DNA of 64,000 bases from assembly GCA_051886195.1 (NCBI GenBank), contig JBJEXW010000005.1:1360-65359 (forward strand). Direction: 5' to 3'. The DNA comes from Clostridia bacterium. GTDB taxonomy: Bacteria; Bacillota; Clostridia; TANB77; CAG-465. The notes beneath the pieces were generated by a model. The model did no database searches and was not told the DNA's origin. It saw nothing but the letters and a program-made list of their open reading frames with translations. Made by a program: the position numbers and the translations under genes. Below are positions 7,211 to 14,673 of this stretch, piece after piece. Position 1 is the stretch's first letter. The number at the start of each line of letters is the position of its first letter.

Positions 7211-8560
7211 ATGTTAGAGAAAAATTTTGAAGTAGAAGAAGTTCTAAATTTATTAGAGCAAAAGAAGTTTAATGAATTAAAAAAATACTTAGAAAGGATA
7301 AATGGTGCTGATTTCCCGAGTATTTTTGAAGCCGTTGATGATAAAGATATGATAATTATTTTTAGACTTTTAAATAAGGAAGAAGCAGCGGAAATTTTTG
7401 CAGAATTAGATTCAGATTTACAAGAAAAATTAATTAATTCTTTTTCTGATGCAGAATTAAAATACGTAGTAGATAATTTATTTATGGATGATACAGTTGA
7501 TATGATTGAAGAAATGCCATCAAATGTTGTAAAACGTATTTTGAAAAATGTAAATGAAAAGGATAGAAAAATAATAAATGAGATTTTAAACTATCCAGAT
7601 GACTGTGCTGGAAGCATTATGACAACAGAATTTGTAGACTTAAAAGAGAATATGACTGTTGAGGAAGCATTTGCAAAAATAAAAAAAATAGGATTAAAGA
7701 AAGAAACAGTATATAATTGTTATGTATTAGATCAAAATAGAAAATTATCTGGTGTAATAGATATTAAAGATTTACTAGTAGCAGATAGAAATGAAAAAAT
7801 TGAAGATTTAATGGATGATAATATAATAACTGTAACAACTTTGGATGATAAAGAAGATGTTGCTAAAATTTTTGATAAATATGATTATGTAGCATTACCT
7901 GTAGTAGATAAAGAACACAGATTAGTAGGTATTGTAACAGTAGATGATGCTATTGATGTAATGAAGGAAGAGGCATCTGAAGACTTTGAAAAAATGGCAG
8001 CTATATCTCCAAACGAAGATGGATATTATAAGACATCAGTTATAAATCATGCTAAGAATAGAATTGTTTGGTTATTATTTTTAATGTTTTCATCAATAGT
8101 TACAGGAGCTGTTATAACTCATTACGAACAAGCTTTTGCAGCACTTCCAATACTTGTTTCATTTATACCAATGATAATGGGTACAGGAGGAAATTGTGGT
8201 TCACAATCTTCGACTCTTGTTATTAGAGGATTAGCTGTTGATGAAATTAAGCCAAAAGATTTTTTAAAAGTTTGGTGGAAAGAAATAAGAGTAGCTATGA
8301 TTGTTGGGATTATAATGGCAATAGTAAATTGTATTAGGATACTTATTCAATATCATGATTTACAGCTTGGAATAGTTGTTGGTTTAACCTTAGTTATTAC
8401 CATAGGTATAGCTAAGTCTCTTGGTTGTTTATTACCTTTAATTTGTAAAAAATTAAAATTAGATCCAGCAATTATGGCTGCACCTTTAATTTCTACAATT
8501 TTAGATACATGCTCATGTCTTGTATTTTTCAATGTAGCAGTAATGATAATGGGATTATAA
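7211..8560 (+). CDS. mgtE: Magnesium transporter MgtE
   Basis: N-terminal MgtE domain, CBS pair (AGSIMTTEF, LVGIVTVDD), transmembrane motifs GTGGNCGSQS and DPAIMAAPLISTILD. Confidence 0.96.
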   Translation: MLEKNFEVEEVLNLLEQKKFNELKKYLERINGADFPSIFEAVDDKDMIIIFRLLNKEEAAEIFAELDSDLQEKLINSFSDAELKYVVDNLFMDDTVDMIEEMPSNVVKRILKNVNEKDRKIINEILNYPDDCAGSIMTTEFVDLKENMTVEEAFAKIKKIGLKKETVYNCYVLDQNRKLSGVIDIKDLLVADRNEKIEDLMDDNIITVTTLDDKEDVAKIFDKYDYVALPVVDKEHRLVGIVTVDDAIDVMKEEASEDFEKMAAISPNEDGYYKTSVINHAKNRIVWLLFLMFSSIVTGAVITHYEQAFAALPILVSFIPMIMGTGGNCGSQSSTLVIRGLAVDEIKPKDFLKVWWKEIRVAMIVGIIMAIVNCIRILIQYHDLQLGIVVGLTLVITIGIAKSLGCLLPLICKKLKLDPAIMAAPLISTILDTCSCLVFFNVAVMIMGL

Positions 8561-8701
8561 TAAATAAAATCACATAGCTAAAGAATATAGTTATGTGATT
8601 TTTACTATGAAAATGAAATTTATATAATATATAGATTTTAATTTGTTATATTATATAGTTTATGTTATAATAATTTATATTAAAAAAGGGGAAATCAAAT
8701 A

Positions 8702-9913
8702 ATGAATAAAAAAAATCTGAAAATGAAATCAGTTTCAAGTGAATATATGGATCAGTATAATGCACTATTAAGATATGTATTTCAAGTTACAGATCAAGAA
8801 CTTAATTCTATAGGTTGGGAAGAAAAAGAGATAATAAGAGCTAAATTTCCAACGATGCAAAAAGCTGATGTAATAGGCTGGTTTGATAAAGATACTCTTG
8901 TATCACAAGTTGCTGTTTATCCAATGAAAGTTAGGATTTTTAATAAAACATATGATATGGGTGGTCTTACAGGAGTTGGAACTTATCCTGAATATTCAAA
9001 TCAGGGACTAATGCATAAATTGCTTGAAACAGCATTAAAAAAAATGAAGGAAAGGGGACAATATATAACATATCTTTTTCCATACTCTATACCATATTAT
9101 AGAAGAAAAGGTTGGGAAATAATATCAGATAAAATATCTTATGAAATAGATGATTATCAATTACCAAAAAATCGTCAAGTTTCAGGAGATGTTAGACGTG
9201 TAAAATATGATAGTGATGAGATAAAAGAAACATATAATAAATTTGCAATGCATACACATGGAGCAATATTAAGAGATGAACTTGCATGGAATGAGTATTG
9301 GCTATGGGACACAGATGATATTATGGCTGCAATTTATTATAATGAAAATCAAGAAGCTGATGGATATATTATCTATTGGTTGGCAGATGATGTATTTCAT
9401 ATAAAGGATATGATTTTTAATACAGAAGATGCAAGAACTGGACTTTGGAACTTTGTATCAGCACACTTTTCAATGATAGATAAAGTAGTAGGAGATACAT
9501 ATACAGATGAGCCTTTAGCATTTCTTTTAGAAGATGCAAGTATTAAAGAGACTATTTCTCCATATTATATGGCAAGAATTGTAGATTTTCAGGAATTTAT
9601 TGCAAGATATCCATTTAGAAAGAGCAATATAGAAAAAAGAGAATGGAAGTTTACTTTATCTGATCCAATAATGGAAGAAAACCAAGGAACGTTCATTTTA
9701 ACAATAGATAAAGATGGAAAGGCAATTGCAAATAAAGTATCTGGTAAGAGCGATGATACAATAAGTATCCAAACAATGACAACTCTACTTATGGGATATA
9801 AAAGACCTGAATATTTAGCAAAGATTGGAAGAATAAAAGCAGATAAGAAAACAATTGAAATGCTAGAAGATTCAATTGGGCAAGATATACCTTATGTGTC
9901 AGATTATTTCTAG
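8702..9913 (+). CDS. Eis-like GNAT acetyltransferase
   Basis: GVGTYPEYSNQGLM acetyl-CoA motif, LFPYSIPYYRRKGWE, 403 aa with an SCP2-like C-terminus. Confidence 0.85.
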   Translation: MNKKNLKMKSVSSEYMDQYNALLRYVFQVTDQELNSIGWEEKEIIRAKFPTMQKADVIGWFDKDTLVSQVAVYPMKVRIFNKTYDMGGLTGVGTYPEYSNQGLMHKLLETALKKMKERGQYITYLFPYSIPYYRRKGWEIISDKISYEIDDYQLPKNRQVSGDVRRVKYDSDEIKETYNKFAMHTHGAILRDELAWNEYWLWDTDDIMAAIYYNENQEADGYIIYWLADDVFHIKDMIFNTEDARTGLWNFVSAHFSMIDKVVGDTYTDEPLAFLLEDASIKETISPYYMARIVDFQEFIARYPFRKSNIEKREWKFTLSDPIMEENQGTFILTIDKDGKAIANKVSGKSDDTISIQTMTTLLMGYKRPEYLAKIGRIKADKKTIEMLEDSIGQDIPYVSDYF

Positions 9914-10045
9914 AAAAAAGGTGGTAACAATTAATTGATATATTGAAAATTATAATATCAATTGATTGTTGCTTTTTTATTTTAATTATTATGTAACTAA
10001 TTGAAAAAACTATGATACAAACTTATGTAATCTTACGGTAAAAAC

Positions 10046-10117
10046 GCAAATAAATTGCGTAAAAAAAGCAAATAATTTGCAAATTTTATAGACAAAATTA
10101 TAATACTAGAGTATAAT
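10046..10117 (+). promoter_or_regulatory. Promoter of the radical SAM-aminotransferase operon with two palindromic sites
   Basis: GCAAATAAATTGC (10046-10058), GCAAATAATTTGC (10068-10080), TAGACA (10089-10094), 17 bp, TATAAT (10112-10117). Confidence 0.65.
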
Positions 10118-10142
10118 TCCCATAAAAAGGGAGAGATGCAAA

Positions 10143-12299
10143 ATGAATAAAGAGCTTAGATTGATTGTAACAAGAAAATGTAATTATGACTGTTATTTTT
10201 GTCATGGAGAAGGAGTTGAAAAGGGAACTAAAGAAGTTTTTGATTCTAAAGATTACAAATATTTAGTAGACTTCTGCAAAAGAAAATATGGTTGGAATAC
10301 TGTAACTATTACTGGCGGTGAGCCCTTAGTTAGAGATGATATATTAGAAATAGTAAATTGTATGAAAGAATTAGATCTTAAAACGACATTAGTAAGTAAT
10401 GGAGAACTTATAGATAGAAATATGGCTTGTTTTGAAGGAATCGATAGATTAAATGTTTCGATACATACATTAAATACTAATCTATATGATCAAATTGTTC
10501 AAAGAAAAAATAAATTATCCAGAGTAATATATAACTTATCACAGCTTAGAAATTTAAATAAAGATATAGATATTAGAATTAATATGACAGTTGTGAAAAA
10601 TCAAAATGATACTATAGAAGAATTCAAAAACATTATTTCACTTGCTAAAAAAGTAAATGCTAGTATCAAAATAATTGAATTATTTAGTAAAAATAAGGAA
10701 GAAATAGTACCAATATATGAAATTAAGAAAAAACTAATTGAATTGAATTTTAAAGTTTTAGAAGAATATACCCATAAGATTGTACTTTTTGATGGAACTA
10801 CAAAAATTATATTATCTAAAATCTTTTGTGCAGCAGCAAATGATAGATACAATCCTAATAGTTATTGTAATTCATTTAATGATTTATTTGTGTCTCCTGA
10901 TGGAATAATTAAACTTTGCAGATATATAAAGCAAGAAGTAAGTATAAAAGATGAAGTAAAAAATAGAGACGACGAAGGATTAGAAAAAAAGATAAAACTT
11001 GCAAATTCTTTATTGGGCAAGCATTGTCCAATGAATACTATAGATAAACTCGCAATTAACGGTGGAAATCCTATAATTAGCAAAGAAGAAGGAAGATTTA
11101 TTCATCCAAAAATAACAAAAGAAATTGAAAAAGCTGTAATAGAACAATTACATGATACAATTTCTATTTATGATAATAGCAATATCTTTAAAAAGTTCGA
11201 AGAATCATTTGCAAAATATCATAATAAAAAATATGCATTAGTTACATCGTCTGGAACAAGTGCATTACATTCATTATATGATGCAATAAATTTAAGAGAA
11301 GGCGATGAGGTTATTTGTCCTATATATACTTTTTTTGCAACAGTATCACCAATATTTCAAACTGGTGCTAAACCAGTTTTTGTTGATTGTGATGAAACAG
11401 GAAATATAGATTATAAAAAGATAGAAGAAAAGATAAATAATAATACAAAAGCAATAATGGTAACACATATGTGGGGATATCCTTGTAAAATGGATGAACT
11501 CAGAAAAATAGCTGACAAGTATGGAATTTATTTACTTGAAGATTGTTCTCATGCACATGGAGGAGAATATAAAGGAAAAAAGTTAGGAGAATGGTCTGAT
11601 GCTGCCGCTTTTAGTTTGCAAGGAAATAAAATAATAACTGGTGGAGAAGGAGGAATTATAATTACAAATAATAAGTATATATATAAAAATTGTATATTAC
11701 TTGGTCATTATAATAAACGTTGTAAACAAGAAATAAATAAAAAAAGTACGGACTATAAATATGCAACAACTGGAAAAGGATTAAAGCTTAGAGCTCATCC
11801 ACTTGCAATTAGAATAGCATATGAGCAATTTAAAAATATAGATAATATTAATTCTATAAAACAGGATATGGTAAATATTATCAAAAATACTATTGATAAA
11901 ATAGATGGATTGACTTTAAATGAACCATATGAAGGAAGTAAATGTAGTTATTATGCGTTAATTATTAAGTATGATCCATCAAAGTTTAACAATTTACCTA
12001 TTGAAAGATTTATTGATGCTTTAAATGCAGAAGGGGGAGTTGAATATGATAAGCCCGGCTCTACATGTCCATTAAATAGGCTTGAATTATTCAAAAATCC
12101 TAGTTATTTTTTTCCTTCTTATGGTAAAATATTTGATGAAAATGAAAAGTTTGTTAATGCAGATAGATTTTATGATAATTCATTTAAAATCCCTGTTTGG
12201 TATAATAAAGAAGATGAAAATATTGTAATAAAGTATTGTGAAATATTAAATAAAGTTTCAAGGTATTATAAGAAGGAGGTAAAAAATGAAATTTTATGA
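10143..12299 (+). CDS. Fusion: MoaA/viperin-like radical SAM domain + DegT/DnrJ/EryC1/StrS PLP aminotransferase
   Basis: aa 1 to about 300: CNYDCYFC, TGGEP, VSNG and late Cys residues (FCAA, YCNS, LCRY). From aa 303: LAINGGNP, TSSGTSAL, VTHMWG, LEDCSHAHG, FSLQGNKIITGGEGG (PLP Lys). Single continuous frame. Confidence 0.9.
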   Translation: MNKELRLIVTRKCNYDCYFCHGEGVEKGTKEVFDSKDYKYLVDFCKRKYGWNTVTITGGEPLVRDDILEIVNCMKELDLKTTLVSNGELIDRNMACFEGIDRLNVSIHTLNTNLYDQIVQRKNKLSRVIYNLSQLRNLNKDIDIRINMTVVKNQNDTIEEFKNIISLAKKVNASIKIIELFSKNKEEIVPIYEIKKKLIELNFKVLEEYTHKIVLFDGTTKIILSKIFCAAANDRYNPNSYCNSFNDLFVSPDGIIKLCRYIKQEVSIKDEVKNRDDEGLEKKIKLANSLLGKHCPMNTIDKLAINGGNPIISKEEGRFIHPKITKEIEKAVIEQLHDTISIYDNSNIFKKFEESFAKYHNKKYALVTSSGTSALHSLYDAINLREGDEVICPIYTFFATVSPIFQTGAKPVFVDCDETGNIDYKKIEEKINNNTKAIMVTHMWGYPCKMDELRKIADKYGIYLLEDCSHAHGGEYKGKKLGEWSDAAAFSLQGNKIITGGEGGIIITNNKYIYKNCILLGHYNKRCKQEINKKSTDYKYATTGKGLKLRAHPLAIRIAYEQFKNIDNINSIKQDMVNIIKNTIDKIDGLTLNEPYEGSKCSYYALIIKYDPSKFNNLPIERFIDALNAEGGVEYDKPGSTCPLNRLELFKNPSYFFPSYGKIFDENEKFVNADRFYDNSFKIPVWYNKEDENIVIKYCEILNKVSRYYKKEVKNEIL

Positions 12300-13185
12300 T
12301 TATTTAATTGAAAAAGGCAAAGAAGATGGTATTGAGAAAAACGTTGTAGGAGCTGTTATTGTTAATGAAAAGAATGAAGTGCTAATAATGAGTAGAAAAG
12401 CTGATGATTTTATGGGGGGAATAGACGAGCTTCCAAGTGGAAATATGGAAAAAGGTGAAGATATTTTAAAAGCATTAACTCGCGAAGTAAAAGAAGAAAC
12501 TAATTTGGACTTGAAAGAAGTAATTTGTTTTATAAATTCTTTTGATTATATATCAGGAAGTGGTAAGAAAGCTCGTCAATATAATTTTGCAATAAAAGTT
12601 GAAAAAAATGGTGTAATTAAACTTACAGAGCATGATGCATATAAATGGGAATCATTACAAGAAGCTAGAGATAATGCTAAAATAACTGATGAAGTTAAAG
12701 AATGTTTAGAAATCTACAATTTTAATAATAAATCAAAAATGCTAGACTTTGAATGTCATTTTTGTGCTACTGCATGTATCTTAAATAAAGAAAAAAATAA
12801 GATATTATTTATTCATCATAAAAAATTAAATAAATGGCTTTTTGTTGGTGGCCATATTGAAGAAAATGAAAATCCAGAAGAAGCTGTATTAAGAGAAGTT
12901 AAAGAGGAAACAAATTTAGATATAGAATTAATAGGACAAAGATATCCAAGACAAGAAGATTTTATAAAGCCTTTTGCTTTACAAAAAAACATAGTAAAAG
13001 AAAATCATATTCATATGGATATTTTTTATGTGGCTATAGACAAAGGAACATCAAAGTTAAAAGAAAAAGAGGATGAAGTTTTAGGCAGTAAATGGTTTTC
13101 AAAAGAGCAAATTATTAGTGAAGATTTTGATACTTTTCCTGAAAAGAAAAAGATGGCAATTGATGTATTAGAAATGTTTAAATAA
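12286..13185 (+). CDS. Tandem double-NUDIX hydrolase
   Basis: Two intact boxes, GNMEKGEDILKALTREVKEETNL and GHIEENENPEEAVLREVKEETNL; overlaps the upstream gene by 14 nt. Confidence 0.92.
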   Translation: MKFYDYLIEKGKEDGIEKNVVGAVIVNEKNEVLIMSRKADDFMGGIDELPSGNMEKGEDILKALTREVKEETNLDLKEVICFINSFDYISGSGKKARQYNFAIKVEKNGVIKLTEHDAYKWESLQEARDNAKITDEVKECLEIYNFNNKSKMLDFECHFCATACILNKEKNKILFIHHKKLNKWLFVGGHIEENENPEEAVLREVKEETNLDIELIGQRYPRQEDFIKPFALQKNIVKENHIHMDIFYVAIDKGTSKLKEKEDEVLGSKWFSKEQIISEDFDTFPEKKKMAIDVLEMFK

Positions 13186-13193
13186 AGAAATAT

Positions 13194-13240
13194 TCTCTCT
13201 CAAAGTATTAATTATAAAATATTTTGAGAGAGATTTTTTT
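13194..13240 (+). terminator. Intrinsic terminator closing the radical SAM/NUDIX operon
   Basis: TCTCTCTCAAA / TTTGAGAGAGA stem followed by T7. Confidence 0.7.
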
Positions 13241-13292
13241 CAAAAAATTACATTTTATGATATAATATGCATATATAAAAGGAGAAAAAATA

Positions 13293-13796
13293 ATGAAAGT
13301 AGCAATTTTAGGATATAGTGGTTCAGGTAAGTCAACTCTTGCAAGAAAAATTGGAGAAAAATATAATATTCCGGTGTTACACTTAGATAAAGTTAATTTT
13401 ACAAAAAATTGGAAAGAAAGAGAAACTAGTGAAGCAAGAGAAATTGTAGAAGATTTTTTAGAAAATGATTCATGGGTAATTGATGGAAATTATTCAAAGC
13501 TAGAACAAGATAGAAGAATTAAAGAGGCAGATAAAATTATTTTTTTAGATTTTCCAGCAAGAGTATGTCTTCATAGAGCTTATAAAAGATACTTAGAAAA
13601 TAAAAATAAGACTAGAATAGATATGGCAAATGATTGTGAAGAAAAGTTCGATTTTGAGTTTATAAAATGGATACTATTTGATGGAAGAGATAAAAAGCAT
13701 AAAGAAAAATATCAAGAAATTTGTAATAAATATAAAGACAAAACAATTATATGTAAAAATAGTAGAGAAGTAGACGAAGCTTTAGAAAGGTTATAG
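13293..13796 (+). CDS. Adenylate kinase-like P-loop protein (topology modulation protein/FlaR family)
   Basis: GYSGSGKSTLA Walker A, LHLD, WVIDGNY, IIFLDFP, CEEKFDFEFIKW. Confidence 0.85.
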   Translation: MKVAILGYSGSGKSTLARKIGEKYNIPVLHLDKVNFTKNWKERETSEAREIVEDFLENDSWVIDGNYSKLEQDRRIKEADKIIFLDFPARVCLHRAYKRYLENKNKTRIDMANDCEEKFDFEFIKWILFDGRDKKHKEKYQEICNKYKDKTIICKNSREVDEALERL

Positions 13797-13797
13797 T

Positions 13798-14673
13798 ATG
13801 CATGATATATGGAATCCATGGCATGGATGCAAAAAGATAAGCGAAGGATGTAAAAACTGTTATATGTATTATTTAGATAAGGTCAGAAATCAAGATGGAA
13901 GCAATATATATAAAGTTTCAAACAATTTTGATTATCCTTTACATAAGGACAGAAAAGGAAGTTATAAGATAAAAAGTGGTGAACAAATAAGAATATGTAT
14001 GACATCAGATTTTTTTATAGAAGAAGCGGATGAGTGGAGAAAAGAAGTGTGGGAAATAATTAGACAAAGATCAGATGTTATATTTTTTATTTTAACAAAG
14101 AGACCAGATAGGGTACTAAATAATTTACCAGATTGGTGGGGAGAAGGTCTAGAAAATGTTTTTTTTAATGTAACATGTGAAAATCAAAAAAGAGCAGATG
14201 AAAGAATACCAATATTATTTTCACTCCCCTTTAAGCATAAGGGAATTATGGTCGCACCATTTATAGGTAAAGTCGATATTGAAAAATATTTAAAAGAAGG
14301 TGTAATTGAACAAGTTATTGCAGGAGGAGAAAATTATGATGGAGCAAGGCCATTAGAATATGACTGGGTTAAGCTTTTAAGTGATGAATGCAAAAAATAT
14401 AATACTAGATTTGCTTTTATTGAAACTGGAAATATATTTATAAAAGATAAAAAAATGTATAAAATAAAAAGTAAACATACTCAAGCCAAGCTTGCATATA
14501 AGTCAGGATTAAGTTATGAAGGAAAGAAAATTGAGTTTAAATTAACAGATGAACTTGGTATTCCTTTAAGAAATGAAGATTTATATGTAGCATATTTTGG
14601 TGAAAATTGTAAAGAATGTGGCAATAAGATGATATGTAATGGTTGTTCTAAATGTGGCAAATGCTATAAATAG
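13798..14673 (+). CDS. DUF5131 (phage Gp37/Gp68-like) protein
   Basis: WNPWHGCKKISEGCKNCYM, CMTSDFF, ILTKRP, GGEN; Cys-rich C-terminus. Confidence 0.85.
   Translation: MHDIWNPWHGCKKISEGCKNCYMYYLDKVRNQDGSNIYKVSNNFDYPLHKDRKGSYKIKSGEQIRICMTSDFFIEEADEWRKEVWEIIRQRSDVIFFILTKRPDRVLNNLPDWWGEGLENVFFNVTCENQKRADERIPILFSLPFKHKGIMVAPFIGKVDIEKYLKEGVIEQVIAGGENYDGARPLEYDWVKLLSDECKKYNTRFAFIETGNIFIKDKKMYKIKSKHTQAKLAYKSGLSYEGKKIEFKLTDELGIPLRNEDLYVAYFGENCKECGNKMICNGCSKCGKCYK

Follow-up and report, generated by a model that had tools for sequence, protein, structure and literature searches.

A radical SAM-aminotransferase fusion of the MoaA branch in an anaerobic Clostridia lineage: a candidate enzyme of aminonucleotide synthesis

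Which reaction would be catalysed by a radical S-adenosylmethionine (SAM) domain that resembles the cyclase MoaA and is fused to an aminotransferase? The question is raised by an open reading frame (ORF) at positions 10143-12299, plus strand, of a 64,000-nucleotide stretch of a Clostridia bacterium genome (contig JBJEXW010000005.1 of assembly GCA_051886195.1), hereafter the window. An initial annotation had described positions 10143-11048 as a radical SAM domain mixing MoaA and viperin signatures. In the ORF list these positions make up no separate gene; they are the opening ~300 codons of an ORF 718 codons long. The fusion is followed directly by a gene for a double-Nudix protein. Most of the functional information comes from the aminotransferase fusion and the Nudix partner; the initial annotation missed both, as well as a fourth conserved cysteine. 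The cassette looks like a modified form of a familiar type of pathway, with an uncharacterised family of radical SAM proteins at its centre. By analogy, we favour on balance the interpretation that it is an anaerobic, radical SAM version of the Pur10/Pur4/Pur7 (AdgB/C/D) route to 3'-amino-3'-deoxynucleosides. The coding features are as follows.

10143-12299, plus strand: radical SAM-DegT/DnrJ/EryC1 aminotransferase fusion, 718 amino acids (ORF translation, Pfam)
10143-11033, plus strand: MoaA-like radical SAM domain, residues 1-297 (Pfam, MoaA models, AlphaFold2 (AF2) fold)
11049-12296, plus strand: DegT-type pyridoxal phosphate (PLP) aminotransferase domain, residues 303-718 (Pfam PF01041)
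12286-13185, plus strand: double-Nudix gene, 299 codons (Pfam NUDIX matched twice)
~12286-12732, plus strand: Nudix N-domain, Nudix box at 12439-12507
~12733-13182, plus strand: Nudix C-domain, Nudix box at 12850-12918

The N-terminal domain belongs to the radical SAM superfamily by its CX3CX2C motif, its Pfam match (Radical_SAM PF04055, residues 8-164, E value 1.9e-19) and its AF2 fold. Its position with respect to MoaA and viperin was addressed by profile, structure and tree comparisons. The NCBIfam MoaA models aligned to residues 3-288, nearly their full length, with 131.7, 119.6 and 107.7 bits against cut-offs of 325.25, 231 and 284.05. The NCBIfam viperin model NF038283 aligned to residues 9-170 only (67.4 bits against a cut-off of 180), and the PADLOC pVip models covered only the core (residues 8-187, 65-68 bits). 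S. aureus MoaA was the best match in a PDB sequence search (E value 4.5e-10 with the single sequence, 4e-23 with the family profile), followed by AbmM (8wm2) and then by viperins. An AF2 model of the domain was built from a 22-sequence alignment and ends at residue 294 (pLDDT 91.3, pTM 0.89). MoaA ranked first in the Foldseek comparison, with a template modelling (TM) score of 0.77-0.79 over ~310 columns, and was followed by SuiB (0.68), viperins (~0.65), AbmM (0.63) and DesII (~0.6); BtrN was not in the top 50 fold matches. Residues 185-294 take up a MoaA-like (Twitch) fold in this model.

A HMMER search of 1.84 billion representatives returned 149 with an E value of 1e-30 or less, mostly stand-alone proteins of ~300 amino acids. 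None of the members of the radical SAM family scored above a MoaA cut-off, and the true MoaAs in the same list (P0227, P0232 and P0253; here and below, P and L numbers denote proteins and loci of the comparison) passed with 342-388 bits. In a neighbour-joining tree, 14 MoaA-type representatives were cleanly split from 84 family members. The clustering check suggested by the initial annotation thus places the domain outside bona fide MoaA, both by the tree and by the NCBIfam cut-offs. The likeness to MoaA is nevertheless far beyond chance. Judged from sequence and model, the domain is best described as a MoaA-branch protein throughout, in an unnamed, uncharacterised sister family of MoaA. An origin as a MoaA-viperin hybrid was considered and rejected, and the viperin half of the earlier description falls with it: the viperin similarity is that of the generic radical SAM core. 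MoaA is used as the outgroup in viperin phylogenies (PMC10732462). The radical SAM family is at present without a curated model, and a literature search on the radical SAM-aminotransferase fusion or its family found nothing relevant. Each of the nearest relatives with a solved structure has a nucleotide substrate, which is GTP for MoaA, CTP for viperin and a cytidine nucleotide for AbmM.

The aminotransferase half matches PF01041 over residues 324-694 (E value 1.3e-74). It is a member of the DegT/DnrJ/EryC1/StrS family, a fold-type I PLP domain with a Schiff-base lysine (K496 in FSLQGNK, 11610-11630, aligned with the GNK of PDB 7b0m), and is of the transaminase type, not of the His-containing dehydratase type. 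Its closest solved structures are the 'sugar aminotransferase' 7b0m (175 bits) and the 2-deoxy-scyllo-inosose aminotransferases 2c7t (BtrR, second-best) and 5w71. More than 100 full-length homologues of the fusion were found (~710-724 amino acids, 50-99% identity). Their present annotation is either 'aminotransferase class V-fold PLP-dependent enzyme' only or a mistaken suggestion of MoaA. In one Clostridium metagenome-assembled genome (L010, 6001-6230) the radical SAM domain is broken after residue 49; ~69 codons are gone and stop codons follow, with the aminotransferase and the Nudix gene still intact. The disruption marks a pseudogene or else results from faulty assembly.

The residues which distinguish the radical SAM domain from MoaA were located by alignment. 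For this comparison the S. aureus MoaA sequence was rebuilt from alignments and then aligned with the family. The translation contains LRLIVTRKCNYDCYFC with R6 and C13/C17/C20, and the other motifs quoted in the initial annotation (VTITGGEP, LVSNGELI, FCAA, YCNS and LCRY) are likewise present.

10158-10160, plus strand: R6, counterpart of MoaA R17 (alignment to S. aureus MoaA; Arg in 83/84 aligned representatives)
10179-10202, plus strand: CX3CX2C (C13, C17, C20), ligands of the SAM-binding [4Fe-4S] cluster (invariant in alignments A1 and A2)
10827-11027, plus strand: four conserved Cys, CX12CX16CX35C, putative fully Cys-ligated auxiliary [4Fe-4S] cluster (conservation)
10827-10829, plus strand: C229 (FCAA), 88/88 representatives, in a ~10-residue insertion absent from MoaA
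10866-10868, plus strand: C242 (YCNS), 84/88 representatives, aligned with MoaA C261
10917-10919, plus strand: C259 (LCRY), 85/88 representatives, aligned with MoaA C278
11025-11027, plus strand: C295 (HCPM), 71/73 aligned representatives, after the last helix and absent from MoaA
10878-10889, plus strand: N246-D247-L248-F249, replacing the T/N-R266-x-R268 guanine-O6 motif of MoaA (alignment)

Of the MoaA residues compared, R17, C261 and C278 are kept as R6, C242 and C259. The others are exchanged: R71 (Lys in archaeal MoaA) for T55, K163 for R145, R192 (Gln in archaeal MoaA) for K176, C264 for F245 with loss of the cysteine, R266 for D247 and R268 for F249. Among 88 family representatives, D247 is found in 63, F or Y at position 249 in 71, K or R at 176 in 79 and T or S at 55 in 72. 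In all 14 MoaA-type representatives position 55 is K or R, position 245 is C and position 249 is R; 13 of them have Q at 176 and 11 have R at 247, and none has a Cys at the C229 or C295 positions. The 'TRK' stretch and E88 vary across the wider radical SAM family. The earlier statements that the N-terminal Arg of MoaA is kept and that other cyclase features are missing were thus borne out: there is T55 in place of the Arg/Lys before TGGEP and no CNRxR, both guanine-O6 arginines are replaced and the second Cys of the CX2C pair is lost.

In MoaA (MOCS1A, the GTP 3',8-cyclase; PDB 1TV7, 1TV8, 2FB3), R17, R266 and R268 are essential; R266 and R268 contact guanine O6, R17 contacts the 3'-OH and guanine N7, and the purine N1 binds the open iron of the three-Cys cluster (PMC9026282). 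The free C-terminal GG tail acts as a GTP sensor that sets off SAM cleavage, and O6 is required for coordination (PMC12625886). The fusion has no such free tail, as its domain runs on into the aminotransferase. The absence of GG noted earlier is correct; it is weak evidence, since GG conservation does not extend to archaeal MoaA (PMC9026282), the MoaA type closest to the family. The FCHxEG, TGGEP, NG, NxS and IEL motifs are common to archaeal MoaA and the window domain, and the C-terminal subdomain is beta-rich in both MoaA and the window domain.

The cysteine pattern also departs from that of MoaA. The three-Cys arrangement CX2CX13C is replaced by CX12CX16C plus C295, and the middle Cys is F245. 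An auxiliary iron-sulphur cluster, proposed earlier from three late cysteines, is plausible; the count, however, is four, and C295 lies within the positions first annotated. The fourth Cys argues for a fully ligated cluster rather than the substrate-binding one of MoaA, and the family probably closes the open iron site with it. Of the essential arginines of MoaA only R17 is kept, the open iron is probably closed, and the fusion has no free tail; because of this, the family appears to have retained the ribose-side machinery of the cyclase and discarded the base-side.

To understand the likely substrate, the gene neighbourhood of the fusion and of its family was compared. The ATG of the Nudix gene lies within the last codons and stop of the fusion, with an overlap of 14 nt. 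Both Nudix boxes are intact (GNMEKGEDILKALTREVKEETNL and GHIEENENPEEAVLREVKEETNL; consensus GX5EX7REUXEEXGU, with N instead of the penultimate G in each). In the species-genome loci a Nudix gene follows the fusion directly in 12/12 cases, whether both domains are encoded by the same gene or by a pair of separate ones; with metagenome loci added, it is next in all 27 fusion loci that have downstream DNA. CYTH genes are often near the fusion (L015-L017, L020, L021, L026, L029) and HD genes sometimes (L012, L036). Stand-alone family members adjoin Nudix, HD, CYTH, split aminotransferases (L039, L053, L054, L062) or aminotransferase-Nudix fusions (L047, L048). Elsewhere the family domain is itself fused to Nudix (P0178), HD (P0146), a cytidylate-kinase-like domain (P0154) or LysR (P0153). 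The recurrent partners are all nucleotide-phosphate enzymes. The earlier proposal of a nucleoside triphosphate (NTP)-binding enzyme with a chemistry unlike MoaA or viperin fits the strict Nudix/HD/CYTH/nucleotide-kinase-like linkage, even if its picture of two parent families is unsupported.

Stand-alone members without an aminotransferase (L032, L035, L037, L038, L040, L043-L045, L046, L049, L052) have NudixC-type Nudix, HD or CYTH partners, and in one subgroup of aminotransferase-less members R102 and R145 are both replaced by Cys. Proteins of ~600 amino acids in which a LysR helix-turn-helix (HTH) and substrate-binding domain is fused to a radical SAM paralogue were found as well (L015 6056-7861, L016 2826-4631, L056 2877-4709, P0153, P0156); in L015 and L016 this protein is encoded directly upstream of the radical SAM-aminotransferase fusion. 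A transcription factor joined to a radical SAM enzyme is unusual.

The relatives of the aminotransferase and of the Nudix protein point to a pathway. Stand-alone aminotransferases 44-52% identical to the window domain (52% for that of L105) sit in Gfo/Idh/MocA-aminotransferase-(397-aa protein)-Nudix cassettes of Saccharibacteria/Patescibacteria (L013, L102-L106), which have one or two Nudix genes and the unknown 397-aa protein as an optional member. The same arrangement was seen on two plasmids. The 6287-bp plasmid pBMSBPS2 of Ca. Pantoea carbekii (L107) holds repA and genes for a Gfo/Idh/MocA protein, an aminotransferase, a NUDIX protein and an inositol monophosphatase only. Plasmid pSGZL of Streptomyces sp. 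769 (L109) encodes Gfo/Idh/MocA-aminotransferase-NUDIX. The window aminotransferase is 43% identical to that of pBMSBPS2 and 37% to that of pSGZL; for the Nudix N-domain the corresponding values are 39% and 44% (E value 3e-40). The Nudix C-domain is 48% identical to the Nudix protein beside aminotransferase-less family members (L035, L043). As the N-domain matches the Nudix of the Gfo-aminotransferase operons and the C-domain that of the radical SAM partners, the window gene thus seems to join an 'aminotransferase-pathway' Nudix to a 'rSAM-partner' Nudix.

In the puromycin pathway, pur10 encodes an NAD-dependent ATP dehydrogenase, pur4 an aminotransferase, pur7 a Nudix enzyme that converts the NTP to monophosphate and pyrophosphate, and pur3 a monophosphatase; Photorhabdus adgB-E is proposed to convert GTP to 3'-amino-3'-deoxyguanosine (PMC11641026, PMC9239236). 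The Gfo-aminotransferase-Nudix operons, with or without the inositol monophosphatase, match the pur10/pur4/pur7/pur3 and adgB-E layout. The window cassette appears to share the logic of dehydrogenase, aminotransferase and Nudix. It differs in having a fused radical SAM domain in the slot of the dehydrogenase and an extra, different Nudix domain, and its host belongs to a strictly anaerobic gut Clostridia lineage. No Gfo/Idh/MocA-type NAD-dependent nucleotide dehydrogenase (Pur10/AdgB) is found in the radical SAM cassettes and their relatives, and these cassettes contain no other enzyme able to supply the aminotransferase with a carbonyl. Because the cassettes keep the aminotransferase and the Nudix gene without the dehydrogenase, we infer, as the most economical explanation, that the radical SAM domain is a non-homologous replacement of that enzyme.

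The pathway could then proceed as follows. The N-terminal [4Fe-4S] cluster would cleave SAM, and the 5'-deoxyadenosyl radical would take a ribose hydrogen of a nucleotide, most likely H-3' as in MoaA, aided by R6. The substrate radical would be converted to a carbonyl instead of cyclising onto C8, since the residues that hold guanine on the open iron site are missing. The second cluster, probably ligated by four Cys, may act as an electron conduit, as in radical SAM dehydrogenases of the BtrN type. The fused DegT aminotransferase would convert the keto-nucleotide to an amino-deoxy nucleotide, and the Nudix N-domain would strip pyrophosphate to give the monophosphate, as Pur7 does. BtrN, the 2-deoxy-scyllo-inosamine dehydrogenase, offers a precedent: it is a radical SAM enzyme whose auxiliary cluster is fully ligated by four Cys, it replaces the NAD-dependent dehydrogenase of a parallel aminoglycoside pathway, and it oxidises CH-OH to C=O for the DegT aminotransferase BtrS/BtrR. 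Unlike the window protein, BtrN acts on an aminocyclitol, has no Nudix partner and is unfused.

Several points weigh against this interpretation. The radical SAM family is without any characterised member. We take K69, R71, K163 and R192 of MoaA to be its triphosphate contacts; the basic residue of R71 is lost (T55), and therefore triphosphate binding must differ from that of MoaA. The AF2 model stops short of C295, the fourth Cys of the putative cluster. Many family members have a Nudix, HD or CYTH partner and no aminotransferase; therefore the core chemistry of the family need not be that of making a ketone for transamination. The cassette is without a phosphatase or an exporter. The proposed link to Pur/Adg derives from the way the operons are arranged and from plasmid operons that carry annotation. 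The nearest solved structures of the aminotransferase (7b0m, BtrR) are sugar or inosose enzymes, so a non-nucleotide keto substrate is possible. The auxiliary cluster of MoaA acts reductively, as the electron donor of the MoaA reaction (PMC9026282), which favours a dehydratase variant.

In such a variant, H-3' abstraction would be followed by departure of the 2'-OH, as in ribonucleotide reductase or diol dehydratase chemistry, and the cluster would donate an electron to give a 3'-keto-2'-deoxy nucleotide and finally a 3'-amino-2',3'-dideoxy nucleotide. Apart from the behaviour of the MoaA cluster, it has in its favour that viperin, of a neighbouring family, is a dehydratase, and the gene context supports it equally well. 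Four-Cys auxiliary clusters, however, are typical of oxidative quenching, and the Gfo/Idh/MocA enzymes in the same slot are simple dehydrogenases, so that a straight replacement predicts dehydrogenation; we regard the variant as rather unlikely. A similarly low probability is given to a sugar or cyclitol pathway, in which the radical SAM domain would oxidise or deaminate a nucleoside diphosphate (NDP)-sugar or inositol-type substrate (compare BtrN-BtrS and DesII-DesI), the aminotransferase would aminate it and the Nudix protein would cleave an NDP-sugar. The solved aminotransferases nearest to the window domain (7b0m, 2c7t and 5w71) would suit this, as would the fold match to DesII and a homologue on a Streptomyces plasmid (L108) that lies among glycosyltransferases; pairs of Gfo/Idh/MocA and DegT proteins are also common in sugar-nucleotide amination. 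It is opposed by the cassette itself, which is autonomous at 2-3 genes and is not accompanied by genes for sugar activation, glycosyltransferases or cyclases. Further points against it are that the enzymes to which the radical SAM domain comes nearest bind NTPs, that this domain is partnered by MutT-type Nudix, CYTH, HD and a nucleotide-kinase-like domain, and that the best-matching operons are of the pur/adg type, the monophosphatase included.

Still less probable is a viperin-like antiviral enzyme making a 3'-deoxy-3',4'-didehydro-NTP chain terminator, with the aminotransferase and the Nudix protein unrelated or regulatory. The pVip and NCBIfam viperin matches, the occurrence of some cassettes beside CRISPR-Cas or other conflict genes (L020, L021, L018) and the kinase-like fusion P0154, which recalls kinase-associated pVips, would speak for it. 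The matches, however, are limited to the common core and far under the cut-off, the C-terminal half resembles that of MoaA and has conserved Cys missing from viperins, and a didehydro product would leave the aminotransferase, which is always fused or linked, with no carbonyl to act on. Phage collections are uninformative either way on this point: the viral contigs and phage genomes searched contained no relative of the fusion and only weak matches to generic DegT or radical SAM genes. We find it equally hard to credit a true MoaA that became joined to an aminotransferase by chance, or a reversed order of the DesI/DesII type in which the aminotransferase acts first and the radical SAM domain deaminates. 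Full-length alignment to the MoaA models and retention of R17 agree with the former, and DesI/DesII, an aminotransferase plus a radical SAM lyase, is a precedent for the latter. Against a true MoaA stand scores reported as under half of the MoaA cut-offs, the missing R266, R268, C264 and free tail, the split from the 14 bona fide MoaAs and a cassette without moaC, moaB and moaE, a context unlike that of molybdenum cofactor genes. The reversed order lacks a source of keto substrate, and the Gfo cassettes work without any radical SAM enzyme.

Other radical SAM enzymes resemble the window domain in part. Viperin and pVip belong to a neighbouring family that acts on the ribose of NTPs and has the core motifs in common; they differ in having no auxiliary cluster and another C-terminal domain. 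AbmM (8WM2), DesII (8HZV) and SuiB appear to share Twitch/SPASM-type radical SAM folds with it, AbmM has the FCHxEG motif and DesII partners DegT enzymes; they differ in their much lower fold similarity (TM 0.60-0.68), a sequence match on the N-terminal core only and their other substrates.

If the radical SAM version of the Pur/Adg route is correct, radical SAM chemistry has been recruited in place of an NAD-dependent nucleotide dehydrogenase, a new type of reaction in the MoaA/viperin neighbourhood, and the 3'-radical of MoaA has been diverted from cyclisation by a handful of residue swaps. With the cassette, gut anaerobes would most likely be able to make amino-sugar nucleotides of the puromycin-precursor type without oxygen. 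Producers of aminonucleosides (precursors of puromycin or 3'-amino-3'-deoxyguanosine, poisons of transcription or translation) would then be common in gut anaerobes, and the Gfo form common in Patescibacteria and insect symbionts. The many aminotransferase-less radical SAM-Nudix modules show that the family chemistry is used beyond feeding a transaminase. The defined signature should allow better annotation of the family. A bolder extension, which we put forward only tentatively and hold to be doubtful, is that the family, with R6, T55, K176, ND-x-F and four Cys in its C-terminal part as signature and a Nudix, HD or CYTH partner in every case, forms a new nucleotide-modifying radical SAM class parallel to the viperins. 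With neither oxygen nor NAD, the fused form might then make 3'-amino or 3'-amino-2',3'-dideoxy chain terminators that gut Clostridia use against bacteria or viruses, with the second Nudix domain protecting the producer.

The fusion and the Nudix gene look like a self-contained operon, because a promoter-like site of their own precedes the pair and a hairpin with a T-run follows it.

10044-10080, strand not assigned: two short palindromes, candidate operator, ACGCAAATAAATTGCGT at 10044-10060 and GCAAATAATTTGC at 10068-10080 (read from the sequence)
10089-10117, plus strand: promoter-like site TAGACA-17 nt-TATAAT, an 11/12 match (consensus match only)
13194-13243, plus strand: terminator-like hairpin, 16-pair stem and T-run, end of the two-gene unit

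The promoter-like site is the best consensus match within 8500-14000, its -10 and -35 are kept in related loci (upstream alignment A3), and the ribosome-binding site AAGGGAGAG lies 3' of it. Both palindromes share GCAAAT/ATTTGC and lie just upstream of the -35. The second, proximal one is kept in 8/8 upstream regions of alignment A3 and the remaining spacer is not; it looks like a candidate operator for a regulator encoded outside the cassette. An Rfam scan of the whole window found no riboswitch upstream of the operon.

The genes around the cassette were also compared. An MgtE gene, an Eis-like GNAT gene, a DUF5131 gene and an Ord-like gene vary in presence or order around it in the species-genome loci. 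In the window it is flanked by a three-domain Eis-like GNAT acetyltransferase (8702-9913) and a FlaR-type 'DNA topology modulation' kinase (13293-13796), both unlinked in relatives. These two and the DUF5131 protein (13798-14673) were considered as cassette members and rejected, being absent or displaced in relatives. The DUF5131 protein (Pfam 2e-40) has a Cys-rich C-terminal tail, matches the PADLOC candidate defence models PDC-M30B and PDC-M41B, shows a weak match to 'radical SAM mobile pair protein A' and adjoins the cassette in L001, L002 and L007, not in others.

Some cassettes (L020 1-5543, L021 83-1915, L018 89-4683) adjoin type II-A CRISPR-Cas genes (cas9, cas1, cas2, csn2) with an AAA_15/21 ATPase, or a VgrG-like (Phage_GPD) gene with a leucine-rich repeat protein. 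The patchy distribution, the shifting position between MgtE and the Ord-like gene and these occasional neighbours weakly suggest an accessory function, possibly in conflict. In a clade whose proteins are ~51% identical to that of the window, genes for a large non-ribosomal peptide synthetase and a histidine kinase precede the cassette (L015 1-1956; L017 and L042 1-4476 and 10250-15815); in L017 it is followed by genes for a His_Phos_1 phosphatase, GNAT, glyoxalase-like, Nudix, CYTH-HAD and CYTH proteins. The whole may be a more extensive biosynthetic cluster that includes phosphatase and acetyltransferase steps.

Aminotransferase homologues with an E value of 1e-30 or less number more than 4,000. 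The Gfo/Idh/MocA cassettes of L013 (4964-8975), L102 (3961-8596), L104 (3955-7943) and L105 (3983-6712) have a middle protein of 397-401 amino acids with no Pfam match. Such cassettes appear to be common in Saccharibacteria/Patescibacteria, which suggests pur/adg-like aminonucleoside genes in bacteria of the candidate phyla radiation. Ca. Pantoea carbekii is a stink-bug symbiont, and the start of the pBMSBPS2 oxidoreductase, MKISIIGCG, resembles the MKLVIIGC of a published adgB primer. On pSGZL (L109, 2414-10512) the Gfo-aminotransferase-NUDIX genes and a second NUDIX gene adjoin the gene of an additional alanine--tRNA ligase, carried by the plasmid, and that of an HTH regulator; the region may be a resistance or biosynthesis island.

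The window sequence is present in faecal and pig-gut DNA metagenome runs, with no RNA runs among those listed. Over positions 1-64000 the G+C content is ~27%, nearly all long ORFs are on the plus strand and the GC skew is positive in 31/32 2-kb bins. This places the window on the leading strand of one replichore in a Clostridia genome of low GC content.

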